From an uncultured Planctomycetia bacterium (lineage in GTDB: Bacteria > Omnitrophota > Gorgyraeia > Duberdicusellales > 4484-171), in the NCBI GenBank assembly GCA_964590995.1, contig CAZPYY010000001.1, forward strand, positions 762-64,761: a stretch of DNA of 64,000 nucleotides, read 5' to 3'. A model generated the notes under the pieces. It was not told the DNA's origin. It saw only the letters and a list, made by a program, of their open reading frames with translations, and made no database searches. How positions within the stretch are numbered: position 1 is the first letter of the stretch; each line of letters begins with the position of its first letter. This document shows positions 25,073 through 59,700 of this stretch, piece by piece. The translations under genes were made by a program, and so were the position numbers.

Positions 25073-25375
25073 TTATATAACCACTACTAGAGGGAAGATC
25101 GCCGGTTTATGAAACTCTACTCCTGCTTGCCACTCATCAGGGGTTTTACTGCACCAGCGTACAATCCCTTTCAATAGCAGAGATTTATCTGTCTTAGTAC
25201 AAAGGTTTATGCGTAAATGGGTACCTTTAGGTAAGTTTTCGGCACTAGCTAACCCTGCTCCGGCTGCACCTATGTCATGGCATTTGATTCCCATAGGTGT
25301 ATTAGTGTTACCCACACATGAGCCTAAAACAGCGCAAGGATACCTTTCGAATGTTCTTCTTTCTCTAACCATCAA
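25073..25375 (-). CDS. PilZ-domain protein (putative c-di-GMP receptor)
   Basis: 100 aa; RRTFER (RxxxR) and DIGAAGAG (D.S..G-like) PilZ motifs. Confidence 0.55.
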   Translation of the reverse strand: MMVRERRTFERYPCAVLGSCVGNTNTPMGIKCHDIGAAGAGLASAENLPKGTHLRINLCTKTDKSLLLKGIVRWCSKTPDEWQAGVEFHKPAIFPLVVVI

Positions 25376-25451: not shown

Positions 25452-25480
25452 TGGCAAGATAAAATTTAGCTATCTTGCCA
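25452..25480. other. perfect 10-bp inverted repeat with 9-nt spacer (tggcaagata-aaatttagc-tatcttgcca) overlapping the stop codon of the PilZ gene
   Basis: seen directly; followed on the + strand by a T-rich run (aaattttctttctc); function (terminator or protein-binding palindrome) undetermined. Confidence 0.35.
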
Positions 25481-25873
25481 CCAAATTTTCTTTCTCAGCT
25501 GGTCACCGAAGTTACTATCGAGGTATGAAATAATTCTTGCTCTATCTATATCCCTTATCTTGGTAAATAAAATACCGCAAGAAGGAGTAGTTTCTGTTCG
25601 TTTTGTCCAAACTACCTTACCTAAAGCATCAATCTCACTGGGCTCCCCGGGAATATGAATAGTTAACTTTACCTCCTCTCCGGCCAAAGGAACGCTTGGC
25701 GAACTTATCCTAGCTCCTCTTAAACTTAAATCCAGTAGCCTTGCTTCCCAGACTTTATTGGAATTTACAAAGGTATAATCCAGAGGTATATCTACTTCCC
25801 AACGATGCCCCATTCTTGTCTGTTCTCCTCTCTCCTCTCCTCTTTCTTCCCTTCTCTCTTCCATCTCCCTCAC
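25466..25873 (-). CDS. PilZ-domain protein (putative c-di-GMP receptor)
   Basis: 135 aa; N-terminal EERREERGEERGE repeat (encoded by a CT-rich microsatellite) supplying RxxxR motifs; DLSLRGARI (D.S..G) motif; the true start may be the internal Met at MGHRWEV. Confidence 0.6.
   Translation of the reverse strand: MREMEERREERGEERGEQTRMGHRWEVDIPLDYTFVNSNKVWEARLLDLSLRGARISSPSVPLAGEEVKLTIHIPGEPSEIDALGKVVWTKRTETTPSCGILFTKIRDIDRARIISYLDSNFGDQLRKKIWWQDS
25815..25870. repeat. CT-rich (CTCTCC)n-like microsatellite inside the 5' end of the PilZ gene
   Basis: 'ctctcctctctcctctcctctttcttcccttctctcttcc' encodes the Glu/Arg repeat; potential slippage-prone tract. Confidence 0.4.
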
Positions 25874-25901: not shown

Positions 25902-26417
25902 TCAACCGCTCTTCTGCCCACCCCGGGGGTGTACATTTTTGGTTTCTTTTAAAAATACACGCCCAGCTCTAGAGATGTTAAGCATATGAATTATGTAGAT
26001 GCGGATAGCTAATACTATCAATATTGTAATGCCTGTATGCGCCCACAAGCCAAACCATGAATCGGTTACTAGAAGTTTCTTTACTGAGATTGAGTATATT
26101 GGCCACCAAATATTTATTATAGGTATAGTAAATAAATTCCACCAAGCTAAAATAATAGCTAATGTTCTAGCGAAATTAAATCTTAATAGAAGCAGAAGAA
26201 TTCCGATAAAGAAAGTAATTACACTTAGCATCGCTAAATAATTACGATAAGCATCTAAAAGGAAATAGATTTCTGAAGGTGTAGACTCCATTGTAGTTAC
26301 TCCTATGAGTAATTCCCAAACACCTGAAATTAAGTGGAAAATTGCTATTGCTACAACATGACAATTTGCCCGGTTTTTTGATAATTGTTTTGTCATCTTC
26401 TTTTTCTTTTTATTCAT
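25902..26417 (-). CDS. small integral membrane protein (4 predicted TM helices), translationally coupled to the giant gene
   Basis: 171 aa; poly-Lys N-terminus; four hydrophobic helices; GGAGGG Shine-Dalgarno sits in the 15-bp gap after the giant ORF stop (26433). Confidence 0.5.
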   Translation of the reverse strand: MNKKKKKMTKQLSKNRANCHVVAIAIFHLISGVWELLIGVTTMESTPSEIYFLLDAYRNYLAMLSVITFFIGILLLLLRFNFARTLAIILAWWNLFTIPIINIWWPIYSISVKKLLVTDSWFGLWAHTGITILIVLAIRIYIIHMLNISRAGRVFLKETKNVHPRGGQKSG

Positions 26418-26432
26418 GCGACCCTCCTCAAA

Positions 26433-26760
26433 TTAATATTTAGGTATCGACGGTATATGTATCGGTGGTGGAGTATACACTGGCGGCATATCAATATTCA
26501 CAGGGAATTGCGGCTTAAATGGGTCTCTGTAATTAGGTGTCGGCGGTATATACACTGGTGGTGGATTATATACCGGCGGCGTATAATGATTATTCATCAT
26601 CTGCTGATATACCGGATTCGTTTTTATCTCCGGCGGAGGGTTGTAAATTCTGTTTATGTTTGGAAATTGGCGCATAGTGTTAGGGCCACGGTAATTCCTA
26701 ATAGTATCTATTAGCGGTGTTTTTGGTACATTAAACTGTTGTAAATCCCGCTGAAGCTGT
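26433..26760 (-). repeat. coding low-complexity Pro/Tyr-rich tail (PPVY/NPPP repeats) at the C-terminus of the giant protein
   Basis: protein ends ...YTPPVYNPPPVYIPPTPNYRDPFKPQFPVNIDMPPVYTPPPIHIPSIPKY; DNA shows reiterated ggcggtata[tc]ac units. Confidence 0.7.
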
Positions 26761-29700
26761 TGCTGATAATTAGGTATAATTCCCACTGGTGTCTGTGGTA
26801 TAAGTGGTTCTCTGTAGCGCTCAAAAGGAGTTTCTCCCATAATATGTTTTTGTCGCCAAGTATCAGACATGCTTGGGGTAAGCATATTGGGTCGAATATG
26901 ATAATTTGGCTGTGTAGAATCATAACCTTTGGTATGAGCTTTCCACACTCCGGGAGCAGCAACGCCTTCAAAATTATATATACCTGGCCAATTTCCTCCC
27001 CTAGGGAAATAATGCCATTTAGATACATCCTGGTCTCTAATCATTATATCTAAATTCGGCATATTTAAATTAGGGTGAATTTCATGAATTTTATGCGAAA
27101 TTACTAAAGGATCATTGTAAGTAAGGTGTGCTCCAGCAATATCTTTAAAGTCATTTATACGATAAGGGTATATTGAATCATAACGATTAATACCAAAAGC
27201 TTTAAAGCCAAAGGCATTATAAACAGGATCCCCTTGCAAAGCTATATTCTCCCACTTTTGGTCCAAACTTGAAAAATCACGCCAGGAAGGAGACCCAAGA
27301 CTTACGAGATGAACTCTGTGTTCATCAAAAAGCTGGCGCACACGCGGATCTAAATCCGGAGAAAGGAATCTTTCTCCTACCAAATTCCCACCGCTGTACA
27401 TCACTGCCATTATTCTGCCTTTTTCTCCTACTATATCTTTAGCCTTTAGCATTGTACCGTCTAATCTTAGCTGAGCATCTAGAATATCCTTACCTGGATT
27501 CCGTATATCTCCGCTAAAAATATTTCCAGTCCAAGAATGTTCAATAACTTTTATTCCACTCAGCTTTAGAATTCTTATAAAAGGCCGATTTCCAGTAACA
27601 TCTACATTTAAATCTCTACGGTTGTAAGGATTAAACCCCAGTAAAGAATCATCAACACCAGGAATAACTATCGCAACATCTATTTTTGGTATATTTTGAT
27701 TTATCTGGGGCCTTACTGATTCTGCTAATAATGGTTCAATGGTCTTTAAGGAAAGCGCTGCAATTGCACGATTCCAAGTATCAGGTTCCTGTTTTAAAGC
27801 GTCTGCCAAAGGATTCACTAACTGAGGATTTTCATGCACTCTAACTCCTAAATTAGCTATTGCGCTTCTACGCACAAATACGGAATCATCTTTTAATGCC
27901 GGAGTAAGTAAATTATCTACAGAAGGTTGCTCTAACCTCCCTATAGCATCAACTGCTACGCTCCTTATCTGCCAAGATTTATCATCGAGAAGCGGTTTGA
28001 TGTCGTTAGCTATATTAGGATATTGAGTAATTTTGCTTCCTAAGCCTTGCACTGCAATACTGCGTATTGTGTTATCACGCACTGTATCCAAAGCAATGGA
28101 AGTTAAGGGTGCTAGGGTAGCCGGTGAGTTAATTCGGCCTAAGGCTAAGGCTGAAGCCCGGCCTAAGCCTAAATTATCGCTATGTAAATTATCTTTGATT
28201 GCTTCTATAGCTTCAGGCTTATTAATATTCCCCCAGCCAAGGCCAAGGGTAGCTGCTGAACGGACTAAGGGGTCAGGATCTATCTTAGCTATCTTAATAA
28301 AAGACTTACTTACGGCAGGCATATCCGTTACTTTCCCACTTAAACCTTCTACTGCTGCTAAACGTACCTTTTGGCTATCGTCTTCTAAATAAGGTATTAC
28401 CTCTTTCAAAGGAGCATCGGGAACTTTAGCAAATGACTGGATAGCCGTAGCGCGGATAATCGCATTATCTTCCTTAATTATCCGGCTTAATTCAGTAAGC
28501 GCCCTCTTGTCCTCAGTAAGCCCTAAGGAAAATACTGCTACTTGTTTAGTAGGAATATCCGGACTATTCAGATAAGGCTTTATCATATCTACTGCATATC
28601 CACTCTTTGATTGGCCTAAATTTAATAAAATTCTCTTCTGAAAATCTGGATTATTACTCTTCTTTAATATCTCTTCAATGGGCTCTTTCAACTGAGGATA
28701 ATCTTCAATATGAGGAGATAAAGCAATCGCTGTTGCCTGTTGTATTCCTACTTCTTTATCGTTTAGCATCCTGGTTATCGCAGCTATTGCTTGTGGTTCT
28801 TTACTTCCTCTTAAACTATTTACGCAAGCTAACTTTACATTATTATCCCTCGCTTTATTTAAAAGCTCAATAGTTAAATCGGTTATCTGGGAATTTTCTT
28901 TTATTTTGTCAGAAAGTACTGCTATAGCTGCTGAGCGAACTAAAGGGTCGGGGTCAGTTTTGACAATTTCGATAAATGAATCCTTGATTTGTGGTATATC
29001 TGCCACTTTGCCACTTAAAGCATTTATGGTTGTCAAACGTACAATTTTACTCTCATCATACAAATAAGGCTTCAAATTCACAATTGGCGCCTCCGGAATT
29101 TGAACAAATGAATGTATGGCTATGGCGCGGATAAGCTCAGTGTTTTCCATAATAGTCCGGATAAGCTCGGCAAGCGCTCTTTGATCTTTGGTAAAACCTA
29201 AAGATAAAACTGCTGTTTGTTTAATGGAAATATCCGGGCTATCCAGATAAGGCTTTATCATATCAACAGCATACTTGCTCTTTACCTGAGCCAAACCAGC
29301 TAAAATTCTTTTTTTGGTATCTTTATCTTTCCCTTTTAATGCCTCATCAAGAAACTTTCTTAATTGAGGGTAATCATCTACATAGTTTATCAAAGCAATA
29401 ACTACCTCGGGCGGAATCGAAGGAGAAATATCACAAAGTTTCTGATACAACGGCTCAATTAGCTCCGGATGCTTCTTTAAATTATTAAGGTATACTAAAA
29501 CAGCTGTATACCCTATCTCTACCTTGGGATTCACAAGTACATATTGGACATCCTGACCTGAAGAATAATATGACTGACTTCCATCGGACCAAACACATTT
29601 TCCTGTAGTCATTATACTTTTAGAATGATATCTATTATGTTTTTTCAAATGATATTTTACAGGGCCGTTAACATCTTCCTCGCGCAAAATTTTACCGATC

Positions 29701-32700
29701 AAATCAATTATTTTAGGATTATCATCTATCCTGTCAGAAAGTGCCAGCATAGCCGCTACCCGCACGCTAACTTCTTCATCCTTATTGGAAACAAACTCAA
29801 ACAATAAATCTGTAACTTCTTGTTCTTTAAACTGTACTAAAGAAGATATTATTTTACAACGCGTTCCTGAAACATAATCTTTTGCTGCCTTGATTAATAC
29901 AGGCAAAACCTCTCTACCTCCGATACGCCCTAAAGCAAATATTACATTTGATTGAAATTCTTTATATTCAGCCTTTTCTAACAGCTCAATTAAGTATGAA
30001 GTTGCTTTTGAACCACCCAATTTACTTAACGCCACAATTGCTTCTTCCATTACATTAATATCTCTGCCTTTTAAGTTTGAATCATACTTTTTCGGATTTG
30101 AGATAATATCAATAAGATATTTTACTGCCTGGGGACTTCCTAGCTGTGCTAAAGAGAAAACAGTTAAAACAAATACTCGTTCTCTTATCTCCTCTGTAGT
30201 CCACTTATTTGGTAAAAGTAGCCTCAAAATGAACTCATGTTTAAATTCATCTGCATTGTAATCCCCCTTGAGGGCTTTCATTAATGTATCTTTGGCCAAA
30301 GAATCGCCTAAACATGCTAATACCCTTGCAGCATAGAAGGGGGTCCGAAAATTATCACTCTTTAAGGCCCTTAAATACCCTCCGTACAACTCCTCATGAG
30401 TCACTCCCAACTTAATCAAAACATCTCCTGGAGGATAAAATAACTTAGGTTCTACAATATATAAATTATGCTGCCCGGCAGCCCCGGTTGTCATCTGTAT
30501 ATAGCCATCCACTAATCCTTTCTTTATCTCGTTAGTCATCTCAGGTGCACGAAATAGTTTAGGGCTTTGGGTGGATACACACCAATAGTAAATTAAAGCA
30601 TTACCATAATTTTTACGTTTAAGTGCTCTCTCTGCTATCTTAATCTGTTTATGCGTGAAAGCTCCAGAGCCTGGGGTAGCACACCCACTGTGAAAAACCA
30701 AACTTAATAAAAGCAATATAATTATAGCCTTACCAAGAAATGATTTTACCTTGTTTAGGCGAATCCCTGCCTTGCCGGCAGGCAGGCTAAACACCTCCCG
30801 GTTGAGGACTGTCCTCAACCGCTCTTTAAGGCTTTTGCCTGTTATATTTTCTTCCCCTACCGGAGAGCTGGTCGACTCAAACTTAATCTTAAATACTTCT
30901 ATTTGAAGCCCTAATATCATATCCTGCTGTCCAGCAGGGCTGTAAGCAGGAATGATGCCAAGTTTCCTATCCTCAGCAGCCGTAACTAAAACCAAGGCTG
31001 CCGGATTTCTTATTTTTAGTGCCTCAGCAAAGTTTTTTGTTTTTTTGCGTATTACTTTCTCATAATCTCTATACTCTATAGAAGGATCATAATCATCTAT
31101 GGAAGAGTAATAATCAAACTCGATAACTGTTACTAAATTACGCGGAAAGGGCAACACAGAAAGGTTGTATTGATCTACTACTCTATCTCCGATATAGTCA
31201 TCGCAATAGTACCCTGGTATAGAAGGCGTAATCCACCAGGGCTCAATGGCTAATCCTCTCTCAACAAGGTAAGGTACCCAATTATTATTCTTAAGCATAC
31301 CCGAATAAACCCAATTATCCGAATGCTCGTCGCCATAGAAAAGAGAAAAAGGTGCTTTAAGAATTCCGCGAGCAACCAGTCTTTCTAACCATCTAATACC
31401 TGGAGCGTGTATCCGGCAAAGAGCGACAGGACAATCCAGCAATAAAGAAACTCCCTCTGATATTTTAATTGGGCTGGAGCTAAAGGATAAAGTTTGATGG
31501 TTTTGAGGATTATCAAGAACTGTGGATTTCTTAGCTTTAGAAGAAAGGGCAGGCGAAGAGGCCCCACCAGCCACGGAAGAGGTAACCTCTTCTTGAGTTT
31601 TAACCTGCCCTTTTATATTATTATACCTTTTTAAATTACCAAGGGAGAGAATTTTCTTAAATATTTTTTTTGTGTTATATATGATTTTAATTTTTTCTTT
31701 GGATATCTTGAAGAAGGTAAATATTTTAAATGACTTCCTAATCGGTGGTGCGTGTGATTTAAAATTTAATATATAAAACTGCACTGGGGAGCTGGAGGAA
31801 TTTTCTTGCTGATCTAGCATTCCTGGAACTTTTGTCAAGGCGATAATTAAGCGGATAATCCTGGAGTTTCTGGCAATCATCTCATCCCGGCTTAACCATA
31901 TGGGAATTCCTAAGTTATTGAATATAGAGCTAAGGAAAAAACTTTGATTGAAACCTTCTCCTTCCTTAATAAAATTAAGTATGTCTTTTTCCGAAAGCCT
32001 TCCTATTTCCTGGGAAATGCTTTCTAACTGAGATGTATAATGGAATAGAGGTTGAGGGATGAATATGTTAATTGTGTCAGTCAATTCCAAAGCCACTTCG
32101 TTATGCATACATCTTATAGCAAAAGTAATTGGTTTTTCAATGGCCGGCAATCTACTCATTGTCTGGTATACCCCATCAAAGATACCGAGTACAACCTGAC
32201 TGTTTGCCGGGCTCACCTTTACAGGTTGATCTTTAACTATTTTATATATACCTTCATCAATATCCTCTCCAGTTAAAAACAGGGCCCTTTCCGCCACCTC
32301 TTTACGCAAGTAAAATTCTGCCTTGCCCCTGCGTTGTTTATCCTCCAGCATAAGCCTAAAATATGGCTCATCATGCGTATTGACCAACTTAAGCGAAATG
32401 GAATAAGAGGATGATTGAATCGGCGAGCTGGAATCACCATTTTTTAACTGTTTTGCAGAACCAATAATCCTATCTTTTAACCTATTACTTAGTTGTTTCA
32501 TGAACTCTTCGCTTGTTTTTATATCAACTGTCAATGCCTGAATAACTTTAGGGTCAACCTCTGTATGTTTTACCAAGGCTTCTATTAAATAATCTAAGAG
32601 ATAATTTAGTATCTGAGAAAATACTTCTTTTTTGAACTTTACATCATGCATATCCTGCAAAGATAATAAAAGACGCTTGATTGTTTCCTTTATGTCCTTG

Positions 32701-35700: not shown

Positions 35701-38700
35701 AGAATATCACCCTCTGTTACGCCTTCGGCATCTTCAATGGAAATAGCCCGGTCCCGCCATCCTTCAAAATGCTCAATTGTCGCCATTTCTTCTTCTGTCC
35801 TGATATCGGCTTTAGGCCAATCCGGATGGCCCAAAATAATCTTTCTCATATCAAACAACAGATCCGGTAAAAAAGAAATAATGGCTGTTGTATTCTTTAA
35901 GTTAAATGTGATATTCTCAACGCTACAGCCCGAGAATATCTTGGCCAACAACTCCCGCCAAGTCTGGCAAAGATTAAAGGTAAGGGCCTTGTTGCCAATC
36001 AGGTTATTTGCCCGTTTAAGCAAGCTGGTAAGTAAATCCTGAGTGGCGGAATCAAGTGCATACCCGGCCAATAAATCCTCGTGGGTTAACCTCTCAAACG
36101 CCGGCGCCGAGGAAGCACCAGAATCACCTTTCGTAGGCGAGCTGGAAGAATCAGCTCTTAGCTCGTAGCTGGTAGCTAGTAGCTGAAAACTATCCGCTAC
36201 AGGCGATGAGCTATTATCTAGCAGTGAGCTGGAGCGGGGGGAAACGAAAGACGAGGTATGAGAGACGAGGGATGAAGACGCGATACGCGAATCTTCCCCC
36301 GGTGAGGCGGCGGAGACGTTAGAGTAATGGTTACTACCCTTACGATTAATATACTGAATCATATCTTTCGCCCATGAGAATATTCTAATGAACAATAGTG
36401 GCTGCTCAGACTCTTTAGTTATCATATTAATAAGAGGTTTATTATCAAGGCATACTCGCACCAAGGCCTGATGTGTTCTTACCAGTTCATAGATAGTGCT
36501 TTTAAATTTTTCACTTCTGACATATGCCTCTTTAGCAAAGATTGTTTTTTTAGGACCTTTTTTTCGTTCTCTGTATTCATCTTTATAAATCCACTCAAGT
36601 GGCAGATACATTTCTGCCCAATTTCCTTTAGCTAAACGCTGTAAATTTTGCATTGTAAAACCAATCTTAGTGATTATGCAATTATCTAAATGCCCGCCGG
36701 CAATGATTAATCTTTGTCCCTTAGATAAATCAACCCTCCAATCTTTTACATGAATAAGGTTAACATTAGGCAATCTTGATTTTAGATAAGAATATCTTTC
36801 CTTAATAGGCATAATGCTGAAATATTGAATATTTGGGAAGTGGTATTGAGCGGAAATTGAATCGGTACGCTTTGTAGCGAAAGAATTGGGTTCTTCACCT
36901 ACCGGCGAGCTGGAGTCAATTGCTCCTTCCTCTCTCAAAGTGTTGACTACGCTATACAACCATGAGTTGATGACGAATAGTCTTGCAATAATACTTGCGA
37001 TATCATTTTCACAATCATATCTTCTAAAGTAATCTTTCAACAATCCCTCTATTTTGGCGCGTTCAATGGCTGTATCGATGACTGTTATTTCTTCGGCCGG
37101 TATGGTCTGTTTAGGATATTCTTTAAGCGAAATCTTATAACTATAAGCAGGTTTTCTTGTAACTTTTTCCCTGTCTTCTTCATCTAGCGCTTGCCTGGAG
37201 AAGATAGCGATAGAGCGTTTCTCCAGTGCAAGTTCTGATTGCGGATACTTTCCGACAAAAACTAATTTGTCTACTAATTTTCTTAATACTTCGTAGTTTT
37301 CCAGCATAAACTCTGATGTAGATAGACCTTCTTTAAAATTAAGTACGCTAAATTGTAAGTTGCCATCCTTATCAGCCGTTAGCCCGTTCTCCATGACCTC
37401 TCTCCTTGCCGATCTGGAGATATTTACCCATAGCGTTGGATGGAATAGCCTTCTCCCACATTGTTCAATCACAAACCTCAATCGCCTCTCAATGAAGTGC
37501 GGTATGTTTTCGTGTGATTTATAACTCTTTATCTCATCGGGTGGCGTACTAAGAATATCTTCTTTAGCTAAGAAGTCATGCATTCTTACTATATTTTTTG
37601 CGCGCGGGAGATTGAACTTCGTAGTTGCGCCAATTATATAGATAAAAGAGGCTGCTCTCTGGATGGGGTCACTAGTATAAATTCCAAAATACGGATTGCT
37701 TGATATGAGGATATGTTCTTCGTAGTCATAATTTATAACTGCGGCTAAGAATCTTTCAAACGGAGCAACGGGCAACAGTCCTTTTCTTGCCATCCCTTCC
37801 AAATGATCTGCCATTTCAGCAAAACCATTATCTCTCAGATACTTAATTGCCATCTGTAGGTCTTCATCTTTCGGCCCTTTTCTATGCAACTGGTCAAACT
37901 CCTTACCAATACCTTCCAAAATACCCTCCAAATCTCTGCCGATTTCTTTTCTAGCCGGCCTTGGGATGCCTGGCATCGCTCTGACTATATCCTCTCCCTG
38001 CCCGTCCGGCAAGCGGGTCCCTTCGGCGGAGGAGGAAGAGGAGGAATTATTTGTCTTTGCAATTTCCTTCAGCACATTCAAAATCTCCTGCCGCAGCGAT
38101 GTGCGACTAAGTTTATTGTCTATGGCGGGCGAGCTGGAAGATTTTCCTTTCAAATCCAGAATCTCCCGTAAAAGATTCCTTTTAACCTGTGCATACAGTT
38201 CCAGTAATACTGGTGCTGTGCACAGCTTCTTGGAACCCCTGTGTATCAAAGATTCCTCAAAGTCAGGGATATCTTTTTTATGAAGGGCATGTGTGGGATT
38301 TAGAAATGCAGACATTAAGAATGTCTTGTTATTTATTCCAGAAAAATAACGTACCAAATGCGAAAGTACTGATTGATCACTCACTAATATTATATCTGCC
38401 TGCTCTACCGCGTCTGCTCTAACAATCTCTATATTATGGAATTTATAAAACCGAGCAAGCCTCTCTCGCATAGCCACATAACCCCGGCAGTAAGAAATAA
38501 TTTTAGTAATAAACTTACAGGAAGACTTTTCTGCTCTAAGCGTTGTACCCGCAGAGAATATTTCTATGCCCATTCTATCCAATGGATCTTGGAGCACTAA
38601 TTCAAGCAATGGACTGCGAAAGACATTAACAGTACATACAACACGAATGCGCTTAATTTGTTTAATTCCTCTGGCTATAAAGATATTCTCGACTGAACGC

Positions 38701-41700
38701 TTAAGCGGCGATGAAGAAGCGGCTTCGCGGACAAATACTTCCAAATAAGCATTTTCTGTCTCAAATGATGTCTCCTGAAGATTAACGGAAAATATTTCCT
38801 TGCCTACAACCCTGAAACCCTGAGATTCTAATAAATCAACGCTTTTGCGGAAGAAAGGCTTGACCACAATCAGGGTATCAGCTTTGATTTTCTTTGATAT
38901 CTGTTTAGAGTTTATTACTTCTAACAATTCTATTAACACCTCATGCTCTGGATTAACCAATAAAATATGGCTCAAGCTATGGCCGGGAATAAATTTTATT
39001 ATATTTGTATCTGTCCTGACAACCGCCAGGTTGTCCAGGTCGACTCTTTGCGCGGCAAGCAAACCCTTTTCCCACATCTGCGCCCACATTATATAAATAT
39101 AATCCAGCGAAAAATATGATTCGTAGATATCCGTGGCAATAACTCCTACATCAGGATTCCTTTCGGCAATAGTTTTTGCGGTTTTGGCTGTTCCACAGCC
39201 AATCTCTAGAATAATCCCCTTACCGCGAAATCCCTCAACAACAAAGTTAACTTTTGTAATATTCTGCCTACTGTTTTTCTTCTGCCTCAAATAACCTTGC
39301 AATCCCGCATATTCAGCGGAAATTGAATCAGTAAACTTTGTAGTGAGAGAATTAGGTTCTTTGCCCACCGGCGAACTGGCCTCAAAAAGCGCCTGGCCCC
39401 TTGAGGCGGTAGTTTTGTAGTCTGGAGTTATATCAGTGACGCAGGGATGAAAAGGCTGTTTAGGAGTTTGAGCTTCGGGTTTCCCTAAAAACATATAGCC
39501 TCTCAGCGCACTTTTCAACATAACTGTCTTAACTTGTGATAGTTCCTGCATTATTTCTGGTATGCACTCTTTGGCCGCATCTATCATAGTTGGAAAAATA
39601 TTACATATTATAAAGCCTCTTTCGGAAAGCAATCCTGCTAAATCAACAATATGGTTTGTAAATTTTCCTTCCCTCACTAAATGGTATAAGCCTAAATAAC
39701 TGTAAATAATATCTAATGTTATAGGACCGATAAATCTTTGAATGTTTTCTACTAGATTCTCGACTACGCCAACAATAAACAGAATATTATCGGGTATCTC
39801 TTTTTTTGCTATAGATAGGCTATATGTATCGCTGAAGGCAATAATAAAGACATTATTGATTCCTTTGTCGTTCAACCATTGGGCCAACTCTATTGGAGCT
39901 GTCAAATCTCCTGCCCCCCAATCTAGTACAAATACTGGTTTGGATGGCTTAGATTTAGCTATCTTAACTATCCAATCATCACGTAATGACCAACCGAGCA
40001 TATAGTTAGAAAAGTCATAATCTATAACTTGAAAAGGAGTGTCGAAGGCCCTCCACCCCCCCTCTTTCACCCACACCCATAGCTCACCACTGGAACTTAT
40101 GCGCACCCTTGGCGTCTTTTTCGCTGTTAAAAGCTTCTCTATCTCTTCCTGAGGCAAGTCTGGTTCAAACACGATACGCCTATTAGCCTTAAATCTAGCC
40201 CACGCTTCGTCTAAACTGAGAAGTGAAGACGAAGCACATTTTTCTGTCGCTATTGCCAGTTTAGCCGCCAAATGAAGTTTTTTAATGGCAGAAGACGCAC
40301 CTCGTTTACTCCTTTTTTTTGTCTCTCCATAATCCTGGTCGCCAGGACGTATTCGTAGCGCGCTCCATGTCGCCACATTTTCATTTTCACCGACTCTCAC
40401 GCAATTGGGCTCAATTTCAAAACCAGAGTGCTGGATAAACTCCTGATGCGCTTTAACAACTTCTTTCTCCTGCCATAAGTCAATTGCGTAATACTTATAA
40501 TGGCCGCCGGCAATAAATAACTGTATTTCGGGTATAAGCCTCAATAGATACATGCTGCTCATGTTGGTTACATCGTACTCATCTTCCCATTCGCCAATAT
40601 TTGAGAACACGGCAATCTTACGGCCCCTGCGGTTAATGATTTTAGCGCATGAGCCGAGAAAGTCCTTATCGGAAATATCGCCCAGATGAGACCGGTAGTC
40701 TTTTCCTTCCGCAAACCCATTGAGCCTCAGCTGTGTTCCAGCCTGTTTAAGTCTTTCCGGAAAGAGCTCTATGATATCGGCAAATTTCAATCCGAGCTTA
40801 AAGCCCGCAAGCGTCAAAATAGCGTCTCCTGCACCGACATCTATACCGTCATAACCATCCAAGCCTCGCTCCATCATATGAATAATCATAGCTGTCGTGT
40901 TTGCCGCGTATCCTTTCTGCGCTAAATCTTTTTGGCTGAGGCTGTTGACTAATATAACATTGGCGCTTAACTCTTTTTTTAGGATTTGGTCTAACCTTTC
41001 ATAACAATAACTATCCATAAAAAATAAATAAGCGATACGGATAACGATAATTTTTTGTTCTCCGCGAACCTCAATCAGGCCGTCTTCTCTATAAAACCTC
41101 TTCTCCCCATAAATATAGTAAGGCTGCCATTTACTAAACCCATCCCATCGCCGTAACACAAGATTTAGCTGTTCGGCAATTTTTTGGCTCAATTGTTCTG
41201 CGTAAGCCTCATCGAACCTTTCGGCTTCTTTATCTGCGGGCGAGCTGGAGAGAAGACTGCCCAGAGAAAACCCTCCTTTTAGACGCCCGAGCTCGCCACC
41301 ATCGTATCGGAATGGATAGAACTCTCCGGTTGTGCTACTCAATTTAACATTTCCACACCATTGTTCACCTCTTGCATGCCAAAGTAATGGTATATTTTCT
41401 TCTTCTAAGGCCGCCAATATAGCTTGTGCATTTTCTTCATTCGAAATCTCAATTTCCTCAATATGCTCCGGTGATACCTCAGGTTGCACCAATATTGCCC
41501 GCAAGATTTCTTTCTGTATAAACGGAAGGGGTGTCAGAATTCTTAAAACCTCCTGGATGCATCCTTGAGCAACGCTCGCAGGTGAGAGGAAAGTATATTG
41601 ATAGGTCTGGGAAGCTTTCAGATGAGCCAAGACAAAGACTTTTCTGTTGATATCAAAAAGAATGAGATAATTACAGTCTATTGCTCCCTCTGATTCTAAC

Positions 41701-44700
41701 TCTCTCTTGCTTCTGTCGCCTCGGACAAGGATTCCGAATTCATCGCGCCGTAATATTGCGGCGGGGCCTTTGGGGTCAATTAGACAATCAACTGAATTTC
41801 CTGAGATTCTTAATCGATATTTTACCGCAGTAATCTTTTTTACATCATCCACAGGCGAGCTGGAGAAAACTGAGTCATTGTTATACGCGGCAATTAATCC
41901 TCGAATTACATCTACCACATCTTCATCTTCTGAGGCCTTTGGCTCACCAAACAAGTCTACGAATATATCCAGACCAAATTCATCAACTATATCACTAAGA
42001 TTTAACTTAACTATGTCTATGATCTTTTCTCGATAGATATTTAATCCGAGATTGCTTGATTTCAATATATCCCGTAAAGACAAGAGCCGCTGAAGCACTT
42101 CTTTCTTAAAATCCTTCCTTCGTTTACTGAATAATTTTAAGAAAATATCCTCTATCTGATGAGAGGTCCGTTCTTTTCTTAAATAGTTTATGAGTAAACG
42201 TAACCCTGATACACTAGCAATATCGCGGGCAGTATCTAATTCCTTTTGTTTAAGTTCAGGGATCATTCTCCACAATTCCTGCTTCACCTTATTTATTCTG
42301 GTAAGAGCACGGCCGGGAGAGCGGCTAAGTCCATAAACCCATAAGTTGCGAATGCGCTGTTTTATCGAACTTTTATAGTAGTTATAGATTTCATAATCAT
42401 CATCCAATAAACTTAATTCATAATCGCTGAGTGGCCCCCAAAAAGAAGAAACATACCGCTTTTCTGACTTTCTAAACCAAAGGGCGAATTCCTCGTCTAA
42501 GTCGGATTCTAAAGAAGTACACCTGATGACCAAACCGTCTTTGATAATAATCCTTACTCTCTCATTAGGATGCCTGCGAAATCTCGCCCATGACCTTATT
42601 CTTGCTCGCCTTAAGCCATTGACTAAAGGTCTGGCACCGCCCAAACGAAGACTTCCGTTGCTGTCTAAAAAACCGTAGGTAGTAACATCTTTAAGTTTAG
42701 CGAATTTCTCCGGCCTTATTCTCCCCCTATAAACATCGATAACCCTCCCTGTTTTATTATCTATAATAGGGAAAAATTCAAACATTGAACAATCATTCAA
42801 AAAGAATATTCTCATAGGCATCCCATTATAGATTTCCAGCTCATACTCTGTATTGCAATAGCCTTTAAATTGAAACGGGCCCATTTTCTTTCCCAAACTT
42901 ACCCGCGCCCTGCTATTGGTTTTACCCCTTACTACTATATGCCCAAACTGCACTCTCTTTTTGTATCGAAGAGGGAGGTCTTCCTTATTTATATAAACCT
43001 GACCGGTCAATTTACCCTCAAAAGAATGAGCAAGAATCTGACGCCACATACCTTTTCTTATTTTTAGGTCCCTATCAGTCTCTGAGGCGATACCGCCTTT
43101 GCTTTCAGGCCTTAGTTGCTTCTGCATCGCAATTATTGTTTTATTCTCTGGGCCTCGAGCCTTAAAATCATCTACAGTGCAAATAGGACCGTTTCGTAAC
43201 TCATTTACATCCACAGGCGAGCTGGAGGAAACTGTATATCTCAACAACGTATCATAGCTCTGCAGTAACGCTGTTTTTGCCTTTTTTTCTACGTCCCCAT
43301 CCCATGCTCGGCAAGGCCTTAGGCTTTGGGCGATTTCATCGCAATAAAATGGCAATATATCTTGAGCGGATTTCAAGAATAACCCTCCAAAAGTAAATTG
43401 TCTGCCTGGGTCAAAATTCTTTATGCGCTGATTATCAATACCGTAATTGAACGCCTTTAATATATCGATGCTTATAAATCCTTGAGAAAGTATATCTCCG
43501 ATAGCCCCAATGAATTTCATAGCCAGGGGCTTTCTCTCGGCTAAGGGATAAGAGGTTAATTCGCTCTCTAATTCTGCAACTTTCTGCTGAATCACTATAT
43601 CAAAACCGGCTAAGCGTGTTAGTTGTGTATTTACCAAACGGTCTGCATACATACTCTGGGCATTGCGATAACTATTTCTTATTGGTCGGGCCCAATGCTT
43701 CTTTATCGGCTTCACAACGATTTTCTTACCTATATATACACGCGCTGTATGTTTAAACTTAGGATTATACAGGACACCGAATCCCAATTCTCTCATCCAG
43801 TCTGTAACATCTAAAATTGAAGCTTTCGTTGTATCTCTCTGAGTACTACATAGTTGTTTTATTAGTCTCATTTCTTCGCTGAGAAAACATTTTGCTACAG
43901 GCGAGGAGGAAGTTCTTTCCTCAACATCTTCTTTATTCTTATTGCTTTTATAGTCTTCTTTAATTAAATGGTCAAATAAAAGATTCAAGAAAGTCCATGC
44001 GCCCCAACCTAATACAATCTTTACTACGCCCCAATTGAAATTCATTACTATCTTTCCTGCGCCTACCATTAGAAAAGATGCTATTGCGGCAAAAACAGAA
44101 AAGAAACCATTAAATCCAAAAAAATCTTTAATAAAAATCTTTAATGGTACGCTAGCTTGAGTTTTTAACCTATTGCTTCTAGCAGTATCAGCAAGATATA
44201 AAGAAACGGCTATTGCGATGCAGCCTAATATTAAAGAATATCTCAGAATCTCGCCAGACAACACATTTCCCACAGGCGAGCTGGAGTGGACTCGATAAAA
44301 ACTGTTTTTAGGAAACACATAGTTATACATTCCCTGAATTCCGCCACTTAAGCGCTCAGAATATGGGAAACAATTAGGAAAACATTCTGCCATTGTGTCA
44401 GCAGCGTGAGTTGTTTCATCAATTATAAGATAACCTAATGGTTTCAGTAGTTCTTTGGCTTTATCTAGCCATTCTTTCGGCCTGCCAAAAATCCTTCTTC
44501 CACCTACAAAATCAATGAATGTCACAAGGTCGAAACTGTGTGGTTTTAAACCATATTGCTTGATATCAAAAACGCCTATTTCGCTATGGACGAACCTAAT
44601 CTTAAGGTCTAATATTAAGTCCTGTTTCTTTAAACTATTGGAAATAGCTATTGCGTACGCTTCAACGAGCTGAGTTTTGCCCTCATCTACATCTACGAAA

Positions 44701-53700: not shown

Positions 53701-56700
53701 TGTTGATAAGCTTCCTTCTCTGTATGTTTAAGATGAACCAGTAATGCTTTTGGCGAAGGCATTAATCCTAACGCATGTGCTCTGTAGAGAAATTGCATAA
53801 ATCGATCATAGAAATCTTCATTAATTAAAACCAGTGGCTTTTGATTTCCAGAATTTCTTAGATTAAACGAAAGAAGCTCACCAATCTCATCCAGGGTACC
53901 AAACCCACCAGGAAAGGCTGACCCACCCAGACTCTTAAAAATAAACATTGCTTTACGTGTGAAAAAATAGTTAAAAATATTCGTTATGTCTTGATATTTA
54001 TTCGATAGTTGTTCATGAGGAAGATTGATACATAAACCAACTGAATTAATAAACTCACGCAAATTCTTATCAACGCTAAGCGCACCTTCGTTTGCTGCGC
54101 GCATAATCCCCGGACCGCCACCAGTAACTACCGAATATCCACCCCGCACTGCTCTCTTACCAAAACGAACAGCTTCTTTATAAAAATGATGGTGGGACTT
54201 GAATCGTGCCGAGCCAAAAGCAAAGAGAGCTGGCCCTAATTCTATGAGCGCACTCTTAGACGCTAGCCATTCATTGATAGTTTGTTCAAAGAATCTCTCT
54301 GAAAGTATGTTGTCGCCTCTTTTATTCCTACTGGATACCGGGCTGCTGGCCTTGTTCTGATTCAACAAGAACATTGAACTGGAAGATTTCTTTTTCCTTC
54401 TTGAACTCTTTTTCTTCTTTTGTGATTTCGCGGAAACAAGATCATGCGTTAATACACGGGAAATATCAATTTCGTTTTTATCGACTCCTTTGGCTTTAAC
54501 TGACCCGCGTATGACACCGTAATGAATAATCTTAATCACTTTTGCGAATGCTCTCTCAAAAGAATAAGAAAAATCCTCTGGCTCTACGGTAAACGCCGCT
54601 GCCAGCATCTTTGCCAGGAACAAGTTACTGTCTTTTATCTCGACAGTAGTCATTACCCTTAATATCTGCTTTAATCTCATTAAAGCAAATTCATTAGTAG
54701 AAAATACTCTTACAACTTCATCTTTTATCCTATCAACATACAATCTTCCTATTTGGCTATCATCTAAACTATCAAGATATTCGTCAAAACCAAGAAGGTA
54801 ATGCCCTAAATGATAAGGAGGTTGATCAGGATACCTTTTACGTACATCTTCCTTTAGAAATTTAATTATTTCTTCTCGTGGTAAGCCTTGAGCTAGCAAT
54901 TCAATAAGCTGGTTAAACGAAGACAAGAAAGCTCCACCGTCGTTTTCATCTTGTAACTTGCCCGCAAACGGGCTGCTGGAATGGTTAAAATAATTATTGC
55001 AACACCTGAGAGCATCATTAAAAATTTCCGCGATGATGTGGTGGGAAAAGTGTTCTCTGCCTATTCTTATATTATGCTCTATTATTCTCTTTCTAAAATC
55101 GGCATCATCAATTATCCTCACCATAAGCATGATAGCTTTCTTTGAAACTGTATCAGTATGAGAGAAAAATGATTTTCTATCAATCAGCGGCAGTTTAATT
55201 ACCTCATCTTCATCAATTTCCATGGTTTCTATAGCCCATAACCCTTTCGCACGTATATCAATTACCCACACCGGGTGAGGATAAACAACAAATGGCCTCT
55301 GATAATAAGCAGCCTCTATCTTAGCATTGCAAAAACCCTCTTGATACGATGGTATTATTATAAGGTCAGCTGCTTCATGTACCTCCCGCAGGCTAAAAGG
55401 TCCAAAGGTTCCCTCAACAGACATTACAAGATTGACCCTCTTCTCTTTGGCAAAACGCTCTAACAGTAACATATAACCTATACCTTCGTCTGTCGCCGGA
55501 TGGGTAATAATGAGGTGCATTCGCCGGTGCGGATATTGCTGCTGCAATTGAGCGGCAATCTCAATGGCCAGTTCTAAATTCTTGCGCCTAATAATTCTAA
55601 GCGGCGCGATCAACAATATGTCATCGGGATGAATATTATGAAATGCCCTGAATGCCTCTCCTGACCTTCTGTTCATGTGCGGTAAATTCTCGAAATCCCT
55701 TGCGTTAGGAGCTATGGCTACCCGCGTATCATATTTATTAAACATCGTTAACTCCTGATACGAATTAATAACTACCGTATAGAGGTCTTCGATCCCGCCA
55801 TAACTTCTACCACCCGCGATCTTATTCAGCCGCCCTGTGACCTTCTCGTTATCGGTCTCGTATTGCTCACGTTCCCACCAGTAATCATGATTGTGGGTAA
55901 TGGTAAAAATAGTCTTATCTTTCATTTCATGTTTTAATTCATTCATAATCTCAACCACCGCGAGCGACAATGCAATATTTACCGGAAGCGACAACACATT
56001 CTCCGGAATGACAAAATCTATGTCATTAGATATAATGAATTTCTTCAATCTTGACTTTATACAATCTTTTAAAAGATGGAATTTATCGATTACCTCATCA
56101 AGTTCCTGATTGAGCTTTCTCTGTTCAGTTTCTTCCTCAATGCTAAGGCCTTCTCTTTTCTGTTTCTCCTCAAGCTTATCTAACTGCTTAGCCAGACTGA
56201 ACAATTGTCCTGTTAATTCTTCAATCTCTTTATTCTTAAAATGGCAGAGAGAATCAACACTCATCCCATCAGCAATATCACTAACGCCGTCAACCTCACC
56301 GGCATAGAAATATACCTCTGCCCCACCCTTCTTGCACACCTTTGCCCACTCTATTAATTCATAGGTAACGCCGTCGCGCGCTTTCTTGCTTATGCGAAAC
56401 GATAAAAACAAAAATCTTTTACCGGCAGCCAGGCTCCTAAGTTGTTTAAATATTTCGCCTTTTTTACCTAATAACTCAAGAGTTGAAATAGCCTTATCAG
56501 CGTTAGTTTGCGGCTCTTCTATAGCCGAACTGCTGGATTCTTCACCATTGTGCTCTCTTATTAATGTTGTTGCAATCGGGCTGCTGGAATCTTTGTCCGG
56601 GCTAGGTAATGTCTTTAATCTCTGCTCTATATCCTCTAATTGTTCATCTAGCCAAAGATGAAAATTATACGAATTAGTGAATTCATCAATAAAATCAAAT

Positions 56701-59700
56701 GCCTTGATAATCAACTCTTTTATTAACTCCAATCTATTCTCATCGGCATCGTTTAAAGTAATATTAAAGAAAGGCTTACTTATGGGCATTTTTGTTTCTT
56801 TTGCTATTAATGCTGAATGCAAATCTTGTAACTTCTTGCCGTCTTCCAAGATCTTATGTTTCTCGCCCGTTAATCTAAATCTACCTTTTGGAAAATCCCG
56901 GAAGGCAAGGATGATCGGCCAAGTTTTTAAGTCTAATTTAAATAAGTCTTTTAACCAAACAACAAGATCAACAATACAAGCAGTTGACCTAATATGGATT
57001 CCCCGATGATCCTGTAGTTGGACTACAAAAGTGATGGAAGTCTTCTTAATTGACGAGCTACAGAGAGTAAAAAGGGACCTGGCCCCTTTTATGTTATTTC
57101 TTAATGACTCTTTAAATAATCCTCTAGTCCACTGTAAGGTATCTTGATCGTTAATTTGTACTGGACTTGCGCAATGTTTCTCATCAATAGTAGTTATATC
57201 CACAGGCAAGCTGACGCGAAGGGATGCTGGATCTATGCGTATGCCTCTGGGCCCTTTTCCTTTATGGACCGCGGCTGCAAAGTATGCGCCTCGGACCTTA
57301 ATCAAATACACAGTGCCAGAGTCACCGCCGACAGGTTTGGCCCCTAACGCCACTATTATATCTTTTTTTATAAAAACCGTATATCCGCTAGATACCGTAT
57401 CGTTATAGCCGCTCACCAGAGTAATAAACAGTCCTTCGTCTAACTCGGATGCTATGGGAACCGGCAGAAGAGCTCCTCCGCGTACTGCTTTTTTCTCAAT
57501 TACAAGCATGGCCAGGTCAACATTTGGATCTCGCCAGATTACCCCTGCCTTACCTATCAATTCATCAGTGTTAGTTCTAAGTATAACCTTATCTCTTTCT
57601 TTAACCACATGGGCACAAGTTAAAAGGATGTAGGCATCTTTTGTCTGTTTCCATACAAAGGCGCTCCCTAAACGGGCAATCTTAACAATCCTTCGAGAAA
57701 ATGCTCCTTTTTCTCTATCCTGGGCAACCTTTTTTTCTAGATTTTGCCTTGCTAATTCTGTCTCAGGAGCTGCTAAAGCTAAAGCTATTTCTTTCACATC
57801 GTCTCGGGGGGTGATTGTTCTTAAGATAAAGTCGATATAATACCTTTTTTCTCTTCTTTGTTCAACGGTTGCCGTAAGGGATTTCAGAGCTAAAGCTATT
57901 TCTTTCACATCATCGCGGGGGGCAATTGTTCTTAAGATAAAGTGCATAGAATAACCTTTGATTGCCCGGATAAGTAAGTCCAATTCCTCAGCTGCATCAG
58001 CTATTCTTTCAGCTGTTGCTTTGAGATCAAGGTTATCTTCAGCAACAATTGCTTTAAGCATAAAACCGACGCAGTAAGCTGGTATTCCTCTTTGGGCCAA
58101 GGTGTTAGTGCAAAAGTTAAGAGCTAAAGCTACTTCTTGAGTGTCATTTCGAGCAGCGATTGCCTTCTGAATAAAGTTAATAGTATGCTTGTCTATTCCT
58201 GTTTGCCATAAGGTAAGTTCAAATTGTCTATTCTCTGCTAAAACAGGTGAAGAGGCAAGCCATCCATTTTGAATATTTTTGTGCAAACTTATCTCTTTGA
58301 ACCTCTGGCCTAACTCAGGCAGGGTGATATCCAGCTCGCCCCGGATAAGTTTGAATGCCTGTTCATATTGTCTGGCGACTCGAATAATACTTATTTTGTC
58401 ATGGCTTATTTCATAGGCAGCCTGCATCATTTCCAGCCACTTAGTGTTATTGTTTTCTTTATGGGCATAATACAGCTTAGCTGCTTCTTGCAGATACTTT
58501 CCGAGAAGTTCCTGGGATTTGCTGAAATAAAAATCGACAATCTTCCTTTTTTCTTCGTATTCGTCTCCTAATTCAAAATGGTGCACGATTTGTTCAAAAG
58601 TATAATCTGTACCGGCAAAAACATCCATCAACCAGCCATTCACCCCATGTTCAATGTATTCAGCCGCACAGCCAGTTTTTGTGGCGATATTTAAGTGGCC
58701 ATTAACGGCTGCTCTTCCATCAGACGTTCCGCCAGCCTCACGGGTTGAGCGCGGCATGCTATTCCATACATCGCAGGCCTGGGTAGCGACTTTCATAATC
58801 TCAGTTCCCGAACCATCGACAAAGATAAATTTGCCTTTCATATCCTCTCTATCAGCCATTATCTTAAACCAGTCTACCCAATCCTTGCCGGCTGCATCGC
58901 GACCCACTCCGCCCATGAAGAAATTCCCCGCCAGGCCATAAGAATCACCCCATGGAGTCGGATACAATTTATCTCTCTCGCCTACAACCCAGGGAAGAAG
59001 GTCAAACAATATGCGCTGCTCTTTATACTCAACAAACCTGCGCACCAGACCAAACAAAGGCCTATCTTGATATTCGAATCCATAACCCTTTGTTGCCTCT
59101 ATGGTCTTGTTAAGCTGCGTTTTCATAGAACAACCTATCTCGTAAAGCACCTTCCCTGTAATTTGCTCTCCAGCTAACTCAAGTTCAAGAAGCTTTTGGC
59201 CCTTCCACTGCTCCGGACAAGAGCCGTTGGTGATCGCTATAACCTTATCAGTATTATCAGGCACAATGATCAGCTTGGTAGTCTCAGCATGCTCTTGTGA
59301 TACAGCATTGATAACTTTGACTCTTGAGTTTTCTGCCAGCCGCCTGGTCAAATTCACTCTACCGTCTCTTACTATATCTTCCGGAACCAAGTCAGGGCCG
59401 ATATTTTCTCTCAACCACCAGGCATCAGAATAAATCCCTAGCGCGGCAGTTTCCGGAGTATGAGTTGTGAAAAGGACTTGCGTATTCGCAAAGATGCTTT
59501 GCTCGCCCTTTTCTCTAAACTGGTCATTATCGAAATATCTAATATCATTCATCATTGCCTGAAGCAGAAAGAAAGTCTGAGCTTCGTTGCAACGTAAGAT
59601 GTCCGGAGCAATCCCAATTTGCTTAAAAAACTCAACATACGCCCGTCCTAAGAAAGCCATTTGTCGCACCTTTCCCGGCTCTCTAGGATAAAGCCCATAG

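Follow-up and report, generated by a model that had tools for sequence, protein, structure and literature searches.

A predicted chymotrypsin-fold protease cassette and a recurring junction motif in a giant open reading frame of Omnitrophota type

Giant genes of the Omnitrophota have been described in published work (bioRxiv 10.64898/2026.06.07.730766; West-Roberts et al. 2023, bioRxiv 10.1101/2023.11.21.568195; Seymour et al. 2023, PMC10066038), and the papers ask whether their products of 30,000-150,000 residues function as a single chain or are divided by proteolysis. Embedded peptidases have been proposed to do the cutting, with N-terminal C39 and S8 domains as the candidates and with the cleavage points stated to be unknown (West-Roberts et al. 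2023, bioRxiv 10.1101/2023.11.21.568195). Here we analyze a 64,000-nucleotide (nt) stretch of contig CAZPYY010000001.1, hereafter the window, whose minus strand carries the C-terminal part of a giant open reading frame (ORF). Within this ORF lies a predicted S1-family serine protease that an earlier note on the stretch had singled out as a candidate autoprocessing enzyme.

The ORF resembles the published giant genes in its length of tens of thousands of residues, its many enzyme families, the pilZ genes directly downstream and the phylum in which it is found. Its recognizable domains are glycosyltransferases of the starch-synthase type and of GT1, two LOG domains, methyltransferases, a weak match to low-molecular-weight phosphatase, helix-turn-helix domains and long arrays of HEAT repeats; the two glycosyltransferase types, the methyltransferases and HEAT are families shared with the published genes. 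This content matches the class of giant Omnitrophota proteins termed "multi-enzyme" (bioRxiv 10.64898/2026.06.07.730766). The giant-gene type itself is already known; the novelty lies in the pairing of a defined junction motif with a conserved S1 cassette. In the published giant-gene texts that we searched, a Trypsin_2/S1 cassette is not discussed, the words "trypsin" and "HtrA" are absent, and no recurring junction, linker or cleavage motif is mentioned.

Protease domain and giant reading frame

The minus strand at 57,195-57,707 encodes the core of a chymotrypsin-fold serine protease, about amino acids (aa) 2095-2265 of the giant ORF, as identified by Pfam, AlphaFold2, Foldseek and a profile search of PDB sequences. 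The motifs LTCAHVV, DLAMLVI and GGDSGTV, which the earlier note had aligned with the catalytic triad of DegP and trypsin, lie where it placed them on the minus strand, and the triad is borne out. The isolated 215-residue domain matches Pfam Trypsin_2 (PF13365) at 31.2 bits (E 4.2e-7, cut-off 27.6), and His2127, Asp2158 and Ser2224 fall on the invariant columns H52, D83 and S149 of a 24-sequence alignment of the family (A1). The His motif matches TNNHVV of DegP and TNKHVV of SplE, the Asp motif matches DVAVL of DegP and EDIAIL of SplE, and the Ser motif matches GNSGS of SplE; the order His, Asp, Ser is kept, with the Ser inside a GDSG-type turn, as is characteristic of the PA clan. Trypsin_2 is matched by 22 of the 24 family members and Trypsin by 16. 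In a MAFFT alignment of 31 domains the three residues are likewise kept, with Leu in place of Ser in a single relative. This conservation indicates purifying selection on the triad, which makes it very probable that the enzyme is active.

Structure prediction, named in the earlier note as the check on the triad, yielded a chymotrypsin fold. The AlphaFold2 model has 13 strands in a double beta-barrel pattern, with a predicted local distance difference test score (pLDDT) of 90.5 and a predicted template modelling score of 0.86; it rests on alignment A1, the single sequence giving a pLDDT of 33. Compared with the PDB by Foldseek, the model matched HtrA2, HtrA1, HhoA, MucD, DegQ, DegS, Rv3671c and the S1C domain of RsgI9 at E ~1e-8 and probability 1.00, with template modelling scores, normalised by target length, of up to 0.71 for HtrA/Deg structures.

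Sequence comparisons place the domain beside these enzymes rather than among them. A single-sequence search of PDB sequences paired its His and Asp motifs with those of DegP, DegQ and MucD. With A1 as a profile, the best PDB matches were the Spl and V8 proteases of staphylococci, with SplE at E 5e-10 across almost all of the ~200-residue domain, and His, Asp and Ser fell on their catalytic residues. The NCBIfam model degP_htrA_DO (TIGR02037) scored 25.3 bits against a cut-off of 416.2, the MarP, HtrA and HhoA models also stayed far below their cut-offs, and no PDZ domain was found in Pfam scans of the protease cassette. We read the domain as a genuine PA-clan (Trypsin_2) member that forms an uncharacterised subfamily; strictly speaking, it is not an HtrA. 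Among solved structures, the nearest are Spl/V8 by sequence profile and HtrA/Deg by fold.

It is very improbable that the triad is a chance match or belongs to a dead pseudo-protease, or that the giant ORF is an artefact of assembly. Such doubts could draw on two observations: within a 1,180-residue chunk the domain scored 27.4 bits for Trypsin_2, marginally below the 27.6 cut-off, and the window copy reads GDSGTV in place of the family consensus GDSGSP, which counts against an active enzyme. Set against them are the isolated domain, which passes the cut-off, the invariant triad and the confident model; the ORF, for its part, contains Pfam domains along its length and has an end that recurs in eight independent assemblies.

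The ORF was listed as 26,433-63,989 (12,518 codons), with GAG GTT GTA upstream of the listed TTG, and it leaves the window at 64,000. Through a small ORF just downstream (25,902-26,417), eight contigs of the same population were found. The same gene is called in other assemblies at 25,848, 25,853, 27,770 and 30,257 residues, each call starting at a contig end, so that the true ORF must be longer than 30,257 residues. The 37.5 kilobases (kb) open within the window compare with >90 kb in other assemblies. The final 9,985 nt show 0-1 mismatch across the eight assemblies, which argues that the giant ORF is not an assembly artefact. The chain of 12,000 residues assumed in the earlier note is thus too short, while its placement of a protease inside a giant multi-module ORF agrees with the extent of the frame and with its Pfam domains.

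Among the 12.5 thousand giant-ORF residues of the window, the S1 domain is the sole recognisable protease; the signatures HExxH, subtilisin GTSxA and DxG were not found in the window ORF. A second, C39/papain-like module had been suggested at 30,870-31,560 and found no support, as 0 Pfam families matched at E<=10 over aa 10,837-11,040. Separately, the region 30,870-31,481 had been suspected to be kin of the cassette at aa 9,769-10,046; no similarity between the two was found.

Junction motif and junction-bounded cassettes

The window ORF contains 30 SSP tripeptides where 2.4 are expected. They comprise 24 exact SSSP (0.17 expected) and six [A/T]SSP, V, I or L follows at 24 of the 30 sites, and there are ~7 SSSS[I/V] variants in addition, so that the earlier estimate of about 31 conserved SSSP junctions was roughly right. 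The enrichment extends beyond this genome: across 60,112 residues in ten segments of giant ORFs, drawn from different genomes, 173 SSP stand against ~12.6 expected. The consensus there is [S/A/T/V/G]-S-S-P-[V/I/L/A], the core motif being [S/A/T]-S-S-P-[V/I/L], with V, I or L as the next residue in 82% and unconstrained flanks. Other lineages have recurring strings of their own, namely [T/S]SKSGGH in two ORFs (P0020 and P0029) and EGRSLPNP..GG[D/E]EV[T/S]EPAP in a third (P0027). Junction codons vary between genomes, and within the window a given serine of the motif is encoded by TCN at some junctions and by AGY at others. The peptide is kept despite this change of codons, which requires selection on the junction peptide; a purely nucleotide-level element was rejected as the sole explanation on the same grounds.

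The junctions divide the C-terminal 12.5 thousand residues of the ORF into ~40 gene-sized cassettes, and homology respects these divisions. BLASTP of the window ORF against other giant ORFs revealed four shared kinds of cassette: a glycosyltransferase, the protease, a methyltransferase and the unit at aa 10,047-10,231. Each alignment fills one junction-bounded cassette of the window, except one weak glycosyltransferase match, and the same bounding holds in the partner ORF wherever the partner has SSP junctions. In this comparison, no alignment spans a junction. Because homology stays inside the junctions while the order of cassettes varies between genomes, the junction-bounded cassette is an evolutionary unit, and the protease cassette is one such unit.

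At the nucleotide level, an 11-nt core, TCCAGCTCGCC, occurs at 11 junctions (aa 6,569-10,520; for example 41,854-41,864, 43,216-43,226 and 44,275-44,285), and a second core, TCCAGCAGCCC, at five (aa 147-3,657). The cores occupy separate blocks of the ORF, and the SSSSI variant clusters at aa 3,700-5,450. The core is the top repeat family (D1) of the repeat finder. Its identical copies lack flanking homology, and the probability of TCC AGC TCG given SSS is 0.0025 from background codon use. Two related ORFs (L008 and L010) each have their own preferred junction codon string. Such homogenised cores suggest concerted evolution, a selected string of pause codons or the core of an in-frame cassette insertion; 11 bases are too short for gene conversion. 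That the cores are the recombination sites of an in-frame cassette-insertion system is less likely than that the junctions are processing sites.

The junctions might nevertheless remain uncleaved and act as a hinge, a modification site or a translational pause, or be the scar of in-frame insertion, with the protease unrelated to them. The identity of the cores without flanking homology fits this explanation, as do the genome-specific codon strings, the shuffled order of cassettes and the lineage-specific junction strings. The retention of the peptide between genomes with different codons, including TCN/AGY switches, speaks against it, the conserved aliphatic residue after Pro would be unnecessary for a hinge or a scar, and unconstrained flanks are what is expected of a short recognition site. 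On balance, we consider uncleaved junctions possible and rather doubtful.

Another explanation would make the ORF an operon without stop codons, with translation starting internally at the junctions. Pro is followed by V, I, L or M, and GTG, ATT and ATG, which can serve as alternative starts, are among the codons of these residues. However, GTG or ATG follows Pro at only 7 of the 30 junctions, with GTA the commonest codon there, and Shine-Dalgarno-like strings precede two of the 30, compared to 16% of ORF positions and 10 of 28 normal genes. With no Shine-Dalgarno enrichment and mostly non-start codons, internal initiation is disfavoured and, in our estimate, extremely improbable.

The protease family and processing at the junctions

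Relatives of the protease were recovered by exhaustive searching. A word-indexed homologue search returned none with either the cassette or the family alignment, whereas HMMER, run exhaustively over 1.84 billion representatives, returned 40, all aligned over query residues ~165-345, which correspond to the protease domain. Genomes scanned with the cassette alone gave no match, and A1 was too diverse for search patterns; a 7-sequence alignment (A2) worked. The scans of GTDB species genomes and Joint Genome Institute metagenomes gave 25 loci, the named ones mostly Omnitrophota; likewise, the protease relatives come mostly from Omnitrophota metagenome-assembled genomes, plus one single-amplified genome. 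Their common architecture is several helical repeats of ~35 residues (IAPxxDVxxIA type), the protease and a short tail, and their core consensus is G.FSRSIV..GSAFVV...YYILLTNTHVV ... DIAILVI ... LVSG.N.TVSSG ... GDSGSPYLV.

The family takes two forms: stand-alone proteins of ~450-1,200 residues, and cassettes within very long ORFs. At seven of nine GTDB loci and four metagenome loci the protease frame is open for 3,000 to >6,800 codons, mostly reaching one or both ends of the locus, and the protease cassettes of the relatives are 318-470 residues long. The other cassettes of these related giant ORFs include pyruvate kinase, PfkB, ROK kinase, alpha-amylase and PPDK (L005, L010, P0028 and P0032). 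In 5,000-residue stretches of L005, L010, P0029 and P0032 no other peptidase families were found, and in the same scan P0028 had only a signal peptidase II domain, at the protein end. HExxH strings (HEEYH/HEINH) stand beside the S1 protease in P0020 (~aa 140-150) and P0003 (~aa 540-550) and may mark metalloprotease units. We also considered whether the stand-alone protease genes might be an "unfused" form of the giant locus and rejected this, as their neighbours have no homology to the giant ORF and share no cassettes with it.

As the likeliest mechanism, we propose that the giant chain is a polyprotein that would be cleaved where junctions are exposed, on the C-terminal side either of the aliphatic residue (a site of the Pro-P2/Val-P1 type) or of Pro. 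Two hallmarks of a polyprotein can be read from the sequence, an embedded protease with an intact active site and a conserved short motif at unit boundaries. Some unit types would be expected to work separately, namely the metabolic-enzyme cassettes of the relatives and the segments resembling membrane spans or lipoprotein signals after window junctions. The motif itself, small residues followed by Pro and an aliphatic residue, after which conservation ends, resembles the non-prime side of a substrate of a chymotrypsin-fold enzyme. Small residues-Pro-aliphatic is a form commonly accepted by S1 proteases; HtrA enzymes favour an aliphatic P1, and elastase has classic substrates in peptides of the AAPV type. 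Proteolytic release of the cassettes at the junctions is in our view the best single explanation of the motif, with a probability that we put at or somewhat below even.

Which enzyme would do the cutting is a separate matter. The S1 cassette would be one candidate, and several observations suit the strict form of self-processing, in which the embedded protease cuts the giant chain at SSSP[V/I], in cis or in trans. No other protease is recognisable in the window ORF, and the triad of this one is intact and conserved. The Pro-aliphatic pair is a P2-P1 combination accepted by HtrA-type and some Spl-type enzymes. In the window, the neighbours of the protease cassette are cytoplasm-type enzymes, and a Kyte-Doolittle scan detected neither a signal nor a membrane segment for thousands of residues around it; the protease and most junctions would therefore share a compartment. 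Finally, in P0020 the protease is the first cassette behind an N-terminal membrane region, a position that matches the published position of C39/S8.

Several other findings weigh against tying the protease to the junctions. First, of ~18 protease copies embedded in long ORFs, ten are in SSP-type ORFs (the window, L005, L006, L008, L010, L012, P0003, L031, L033 and L034, where L008 is apparently the ORF of P0005, with the same motif counts and the same protease position) and eight are not: the protease occurs in giant ORFs without SSP enrichment (L007, L011, L029, P0028 and P0032) and together with other junction strings (SKSGGH in P0020 and P0029, EGRSLPNP in P0027). Second, the stand-alone homologues have the same layout of repeats plus protease and begin with N-terminal hydrophobic, signal-peptide-like segments (judged by eye), no SSP motifs or giant neighbours were found for them, and they point to an ancestral extracytoplasmic role on other substrates. 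Since the family occurs without SSP, with other strings and as stand-alone genes, the link between protease and SSP is not exclusive. Third, the minimal motif is present in the housekeeping proteins MlaD (ISSPV; gene at 9,773-10,483) and LysS (NSSPI; 19,764-21,188), and a junction protease would need context such as exposure in order to spare them. Fourth, the identity of the cores within the genome hints that they arose at the nucleotide level or by recombination, in which case no protease need be involved. Fifth, the SKSGGH string ends in a double glycine, which is the classic site of C39 peptidases, and subtilisins (S8) also favour Pro at P2 with a hydrophobic P1. C39 domains are reported near the N-termini of giant ORFs (West-Roberts et al., bioRxiv 10.1101/2023.11.21.568195). 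Lastly, the family comprises only 40 representative clusters, compared to thousands of giant Omnitrophota proteins (bioRxiv 10.64898/2026.06.07.730766). We consider it unlikely that the S1 cassette is the junction-cutting enzyme, and strict self-processing is unlikely to the same degree; the S1 domain is no better supported in this role than the published N-terminal C39/S8 domains, which would lie outside the window.

If it is not the processing enzyme, the S1 cassette would be a cargo protease, like the stand-alone homologues with their apparent export signals. It would then act on different targets, prey or envelope proteins for example, and bear no special relation to the junctions. Those homologues, with their shared layout, are consistent with this role, and so are hydrophobic, membrane-span-like stretches that flank the protease in the giant ORFs P0002, P0015, P0020, P0027 and P0032 (by eye), as well as the presence of the cassette whatever the junction type. 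Published work has also linked giant Omnitrophota proteins to predation. The window cassette fits the role poorly: it lies far from any signal or membrane segment, and a tethered, unreleased protease amid metabolic enzymes would have no obvious external substrate. A cargo protease is quite possible, though we stop short of calling it probable.

Taken as a whole, the account given here (the identity of the protease, its anatomy and the hedged mechanism) seems to us somewhat better than an even proposition. A broader generalization is more tentative, namely that SSP[V/I/L] are true processing sites and giant ORFs are cellular polyproteins, served by S1 or C39/S8 peptidases and by lineage-specific cleavage strings. 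Were it true, gene-sized enzymes by the dozen, among them those of glycolysis and sugar metabolism, would be translated as one chain of >30,000 residues and then released, at strings such as SSP[V/I/L], SKSGG-H (a double-glycine site) and EGRSLPNP according to lineage, in a bacterial counterpart of viral polyprotein expression on the scale of a genome island. The locus offers two handles on the question, a five-residue junction motif that delimits cassettes in many species and an intact, conserved S1 cassette that can be expressed alone, and together they make the processing of giant proteins directly testable. Confirmed cleavage would give bacteria a polyprotein mode of gene expression that is so far familiar chiefly from viruses. 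Even if cleavage should be disproved, the motif delimits the evolutionary units of these genes and makes their annotation and structure prediction easier.

Features of the locus and comparison with known systems

The protease cassette consists of helical repeats, the S1 protease and a C-terminal extension, in which a Pfam scan (aa 2266-2467) found no match. Its boundaries, the catalytic codons, all 30 junctions and other features are collected in Table 1.

Table 1. Coordinates of features of the giant ORF and its surroundings in the window
Feature	Coordinates (nt)	Strand	Details
Giant ORF, C-terminal part	26,433-64,000	minus	no in-frame stop to the window edge
Protease cassette	56,589-58,256	minus	aa 1912-2467, 556 residues
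Junction ASSPV	58,242-58,256	minus	aa 1912, upstream cassette boundary
N-terminal helical repeats	57,765-58,217	minus	ILRTIAPRDDVKEIALAL type; direct-repeat family D3; also ahead of the protease in relatives
Catalytic His2127 codon	57,609-57,611	minus	in LTCAHVV, aa 2123-2129, nt 57,603-57,623
Catalytic Asp2158 codon	57,516-57,518	minus	in DLAMLVI, aa 2158-2164, nt 57,498-57,518
Catalytic Ser2224 codon	57,318-57,320	minus	in GGDSGTV, aa 2221-2227, nt 57,309-57,329
Cassette C-terminal part	56,589-57,194	minus	aa 2266-2467; first part resembles the family's short conserved tail
Junction SSSPI	56,574-56,588	minus	aa 2468, downstream cassette boundary
All 30 xSSP+1 junctions	30,858-63,551	minus	span of the 15-nt sites; high coordinates in the next three lines
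Junctions 1-10, high coordinates	63551, 60128, 58256, 56588, 54980, 54350, 53021, 52013, 46985, 44921
Junctions 11-20, high coordinates	44285, 43910, 43226, 41864, 41249, 39380, 38717, 38138, 36914, 36212
Junctions 21-30, high coordinates	36146, 34931, 34685, 33854, 33302, 32432, 31796, 31562, 31481, 30872
Hydrophobic, membrane-span-like segments	44,046-44,249	minus	aa 6581-6648; Kyte-Doolittle scan
Signal-peptide/lipoprotein-like segment	30,678-30,749	minus	KAIIILLLLSLVFHSGC, aa 11081-11104; 41 residues past junction TSSPV
pilZ gene	25,466-25,873	minus	Pfam PilZ and gene call; downstream of the giant ORF
pilZ gene	25,073-25,375	minus	Pfam PilZ and gene call; downstream of the giant ORF

Some units of the ORF stand out beside their neighbours. 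The 125-residue cassette at aa 6569-6694 (43,911-44,285) consists almost only of two to three hydrophobic spans, amid cassettes of cytoplasm-type enzymes. The segment KAIIILLLLSLVFHSGC, followed by ~1,000 residues of HEAT repeats, may contain a lipobox, and an internal lipoprotein signal at that place would itself imply cleavage or a membrane anchor. Two cassette starts (36,844-36,919 and 39,310-39,385) are near-identical after the junction (SSSPVGEEPNSFATKRTDSISAQY and ASSPVGKEPNSLTTKFTDSISAEY; 83% identity over 76 nt), which points to local duplication of a cassette start. At its C-terminus (26,436-26,900) the ORF has a tail rich in proline, in which the strings NPPPVY, IPPTPNY and TPPPIHIP are repeated.

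The remainder of the window (1-26,400) contains ordinary chromosomal genes, including mcsA/mcsB/clpC, radA, cysS, lysS and those for Mla and Opp transporters. LysS and ClpC cluster at 90% identity with NCBI proteins named Candidatus Omnitrophota bacterium, and on this evidence the host genome is assigned to an Omnitrophota bacterium. Between the giant ORF and the two pilZ genes lies the small ORF used to find the other assemblies; it encodes 171 aa and has no Pfam match. Most Omnitrophota giant genes are followed by pilZ genes, and a conserved parvulin-type prolyl isomerase is reported near them (West-Roberts et al. 2023, bioRxiv 10.1101/2023.11.21.568195). The isomerase deserves attention in light of the Ser-Pro junctions.

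Beyond the giant genes, the locus can be compared with four described systems. The HtrA enzymes (HtrA/DegP/DegS/HtrA2; MEROPS S1C) share the chymotrypsin fold and the motifs TNxHV, D[IL]A[LV]L and G[DN]SG with the window protease, and they provide its best fold matches and best single-sequence PDB matches. Unlike them, the window copy has neither PDZ domain nor signal peptide, carries N-terminal helical repeats specific to its family and is embedded in a giant ORF. The Spl proteases and V8 glutamyl endopeptidase (MEROPS S1B), compact single-domain enzymes, are its best profile matches. Spl proteases have narrow sequence specificity, SplD accepting Pro or Leu at P2 and an aliphatic residue or Thr at P1, and both Spl and V8 are activated by exact N-terminal trimming. 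They differ from the window protease in being secreted, in occurring outside multi-module proteins and in lacking the helical-repeat prefix.

The chymotrypsin-fold polyprotein proteases of viruses (astrovirus, sobemo/luteo/barnavirus and arterivirus nsp4) are alike in that the protease sits within a long chain of units, with a short lineage-specific motif at unit boundaries, and they match the fold at E 1e-8 to 1e-6. This likeness reflects the shared PA clan only and is no closer than that to HtrA. Here, in contrast to the viruses, the gene lies on a cellular chromosome, the chain is 10-100 times longer, and the junctions are putative cleavage sites. Among bacterial proteins, MARTX toxins carry exchangeable effector cassettes whose content is shuffled between strains, and an embedded C80 cysteine protease separates them at linkers. 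That protease is activated by inositol hexakisphosphate and is Leu-specific, and the toxins have RTX repeats, type I secretion and lengths of 3,500-5,300 residues. The giant ORF resembles MARTX as a giant bacterial protein of shuffled cassettes, and differs from it in protease class, RTX repeats, type I secretion and length.

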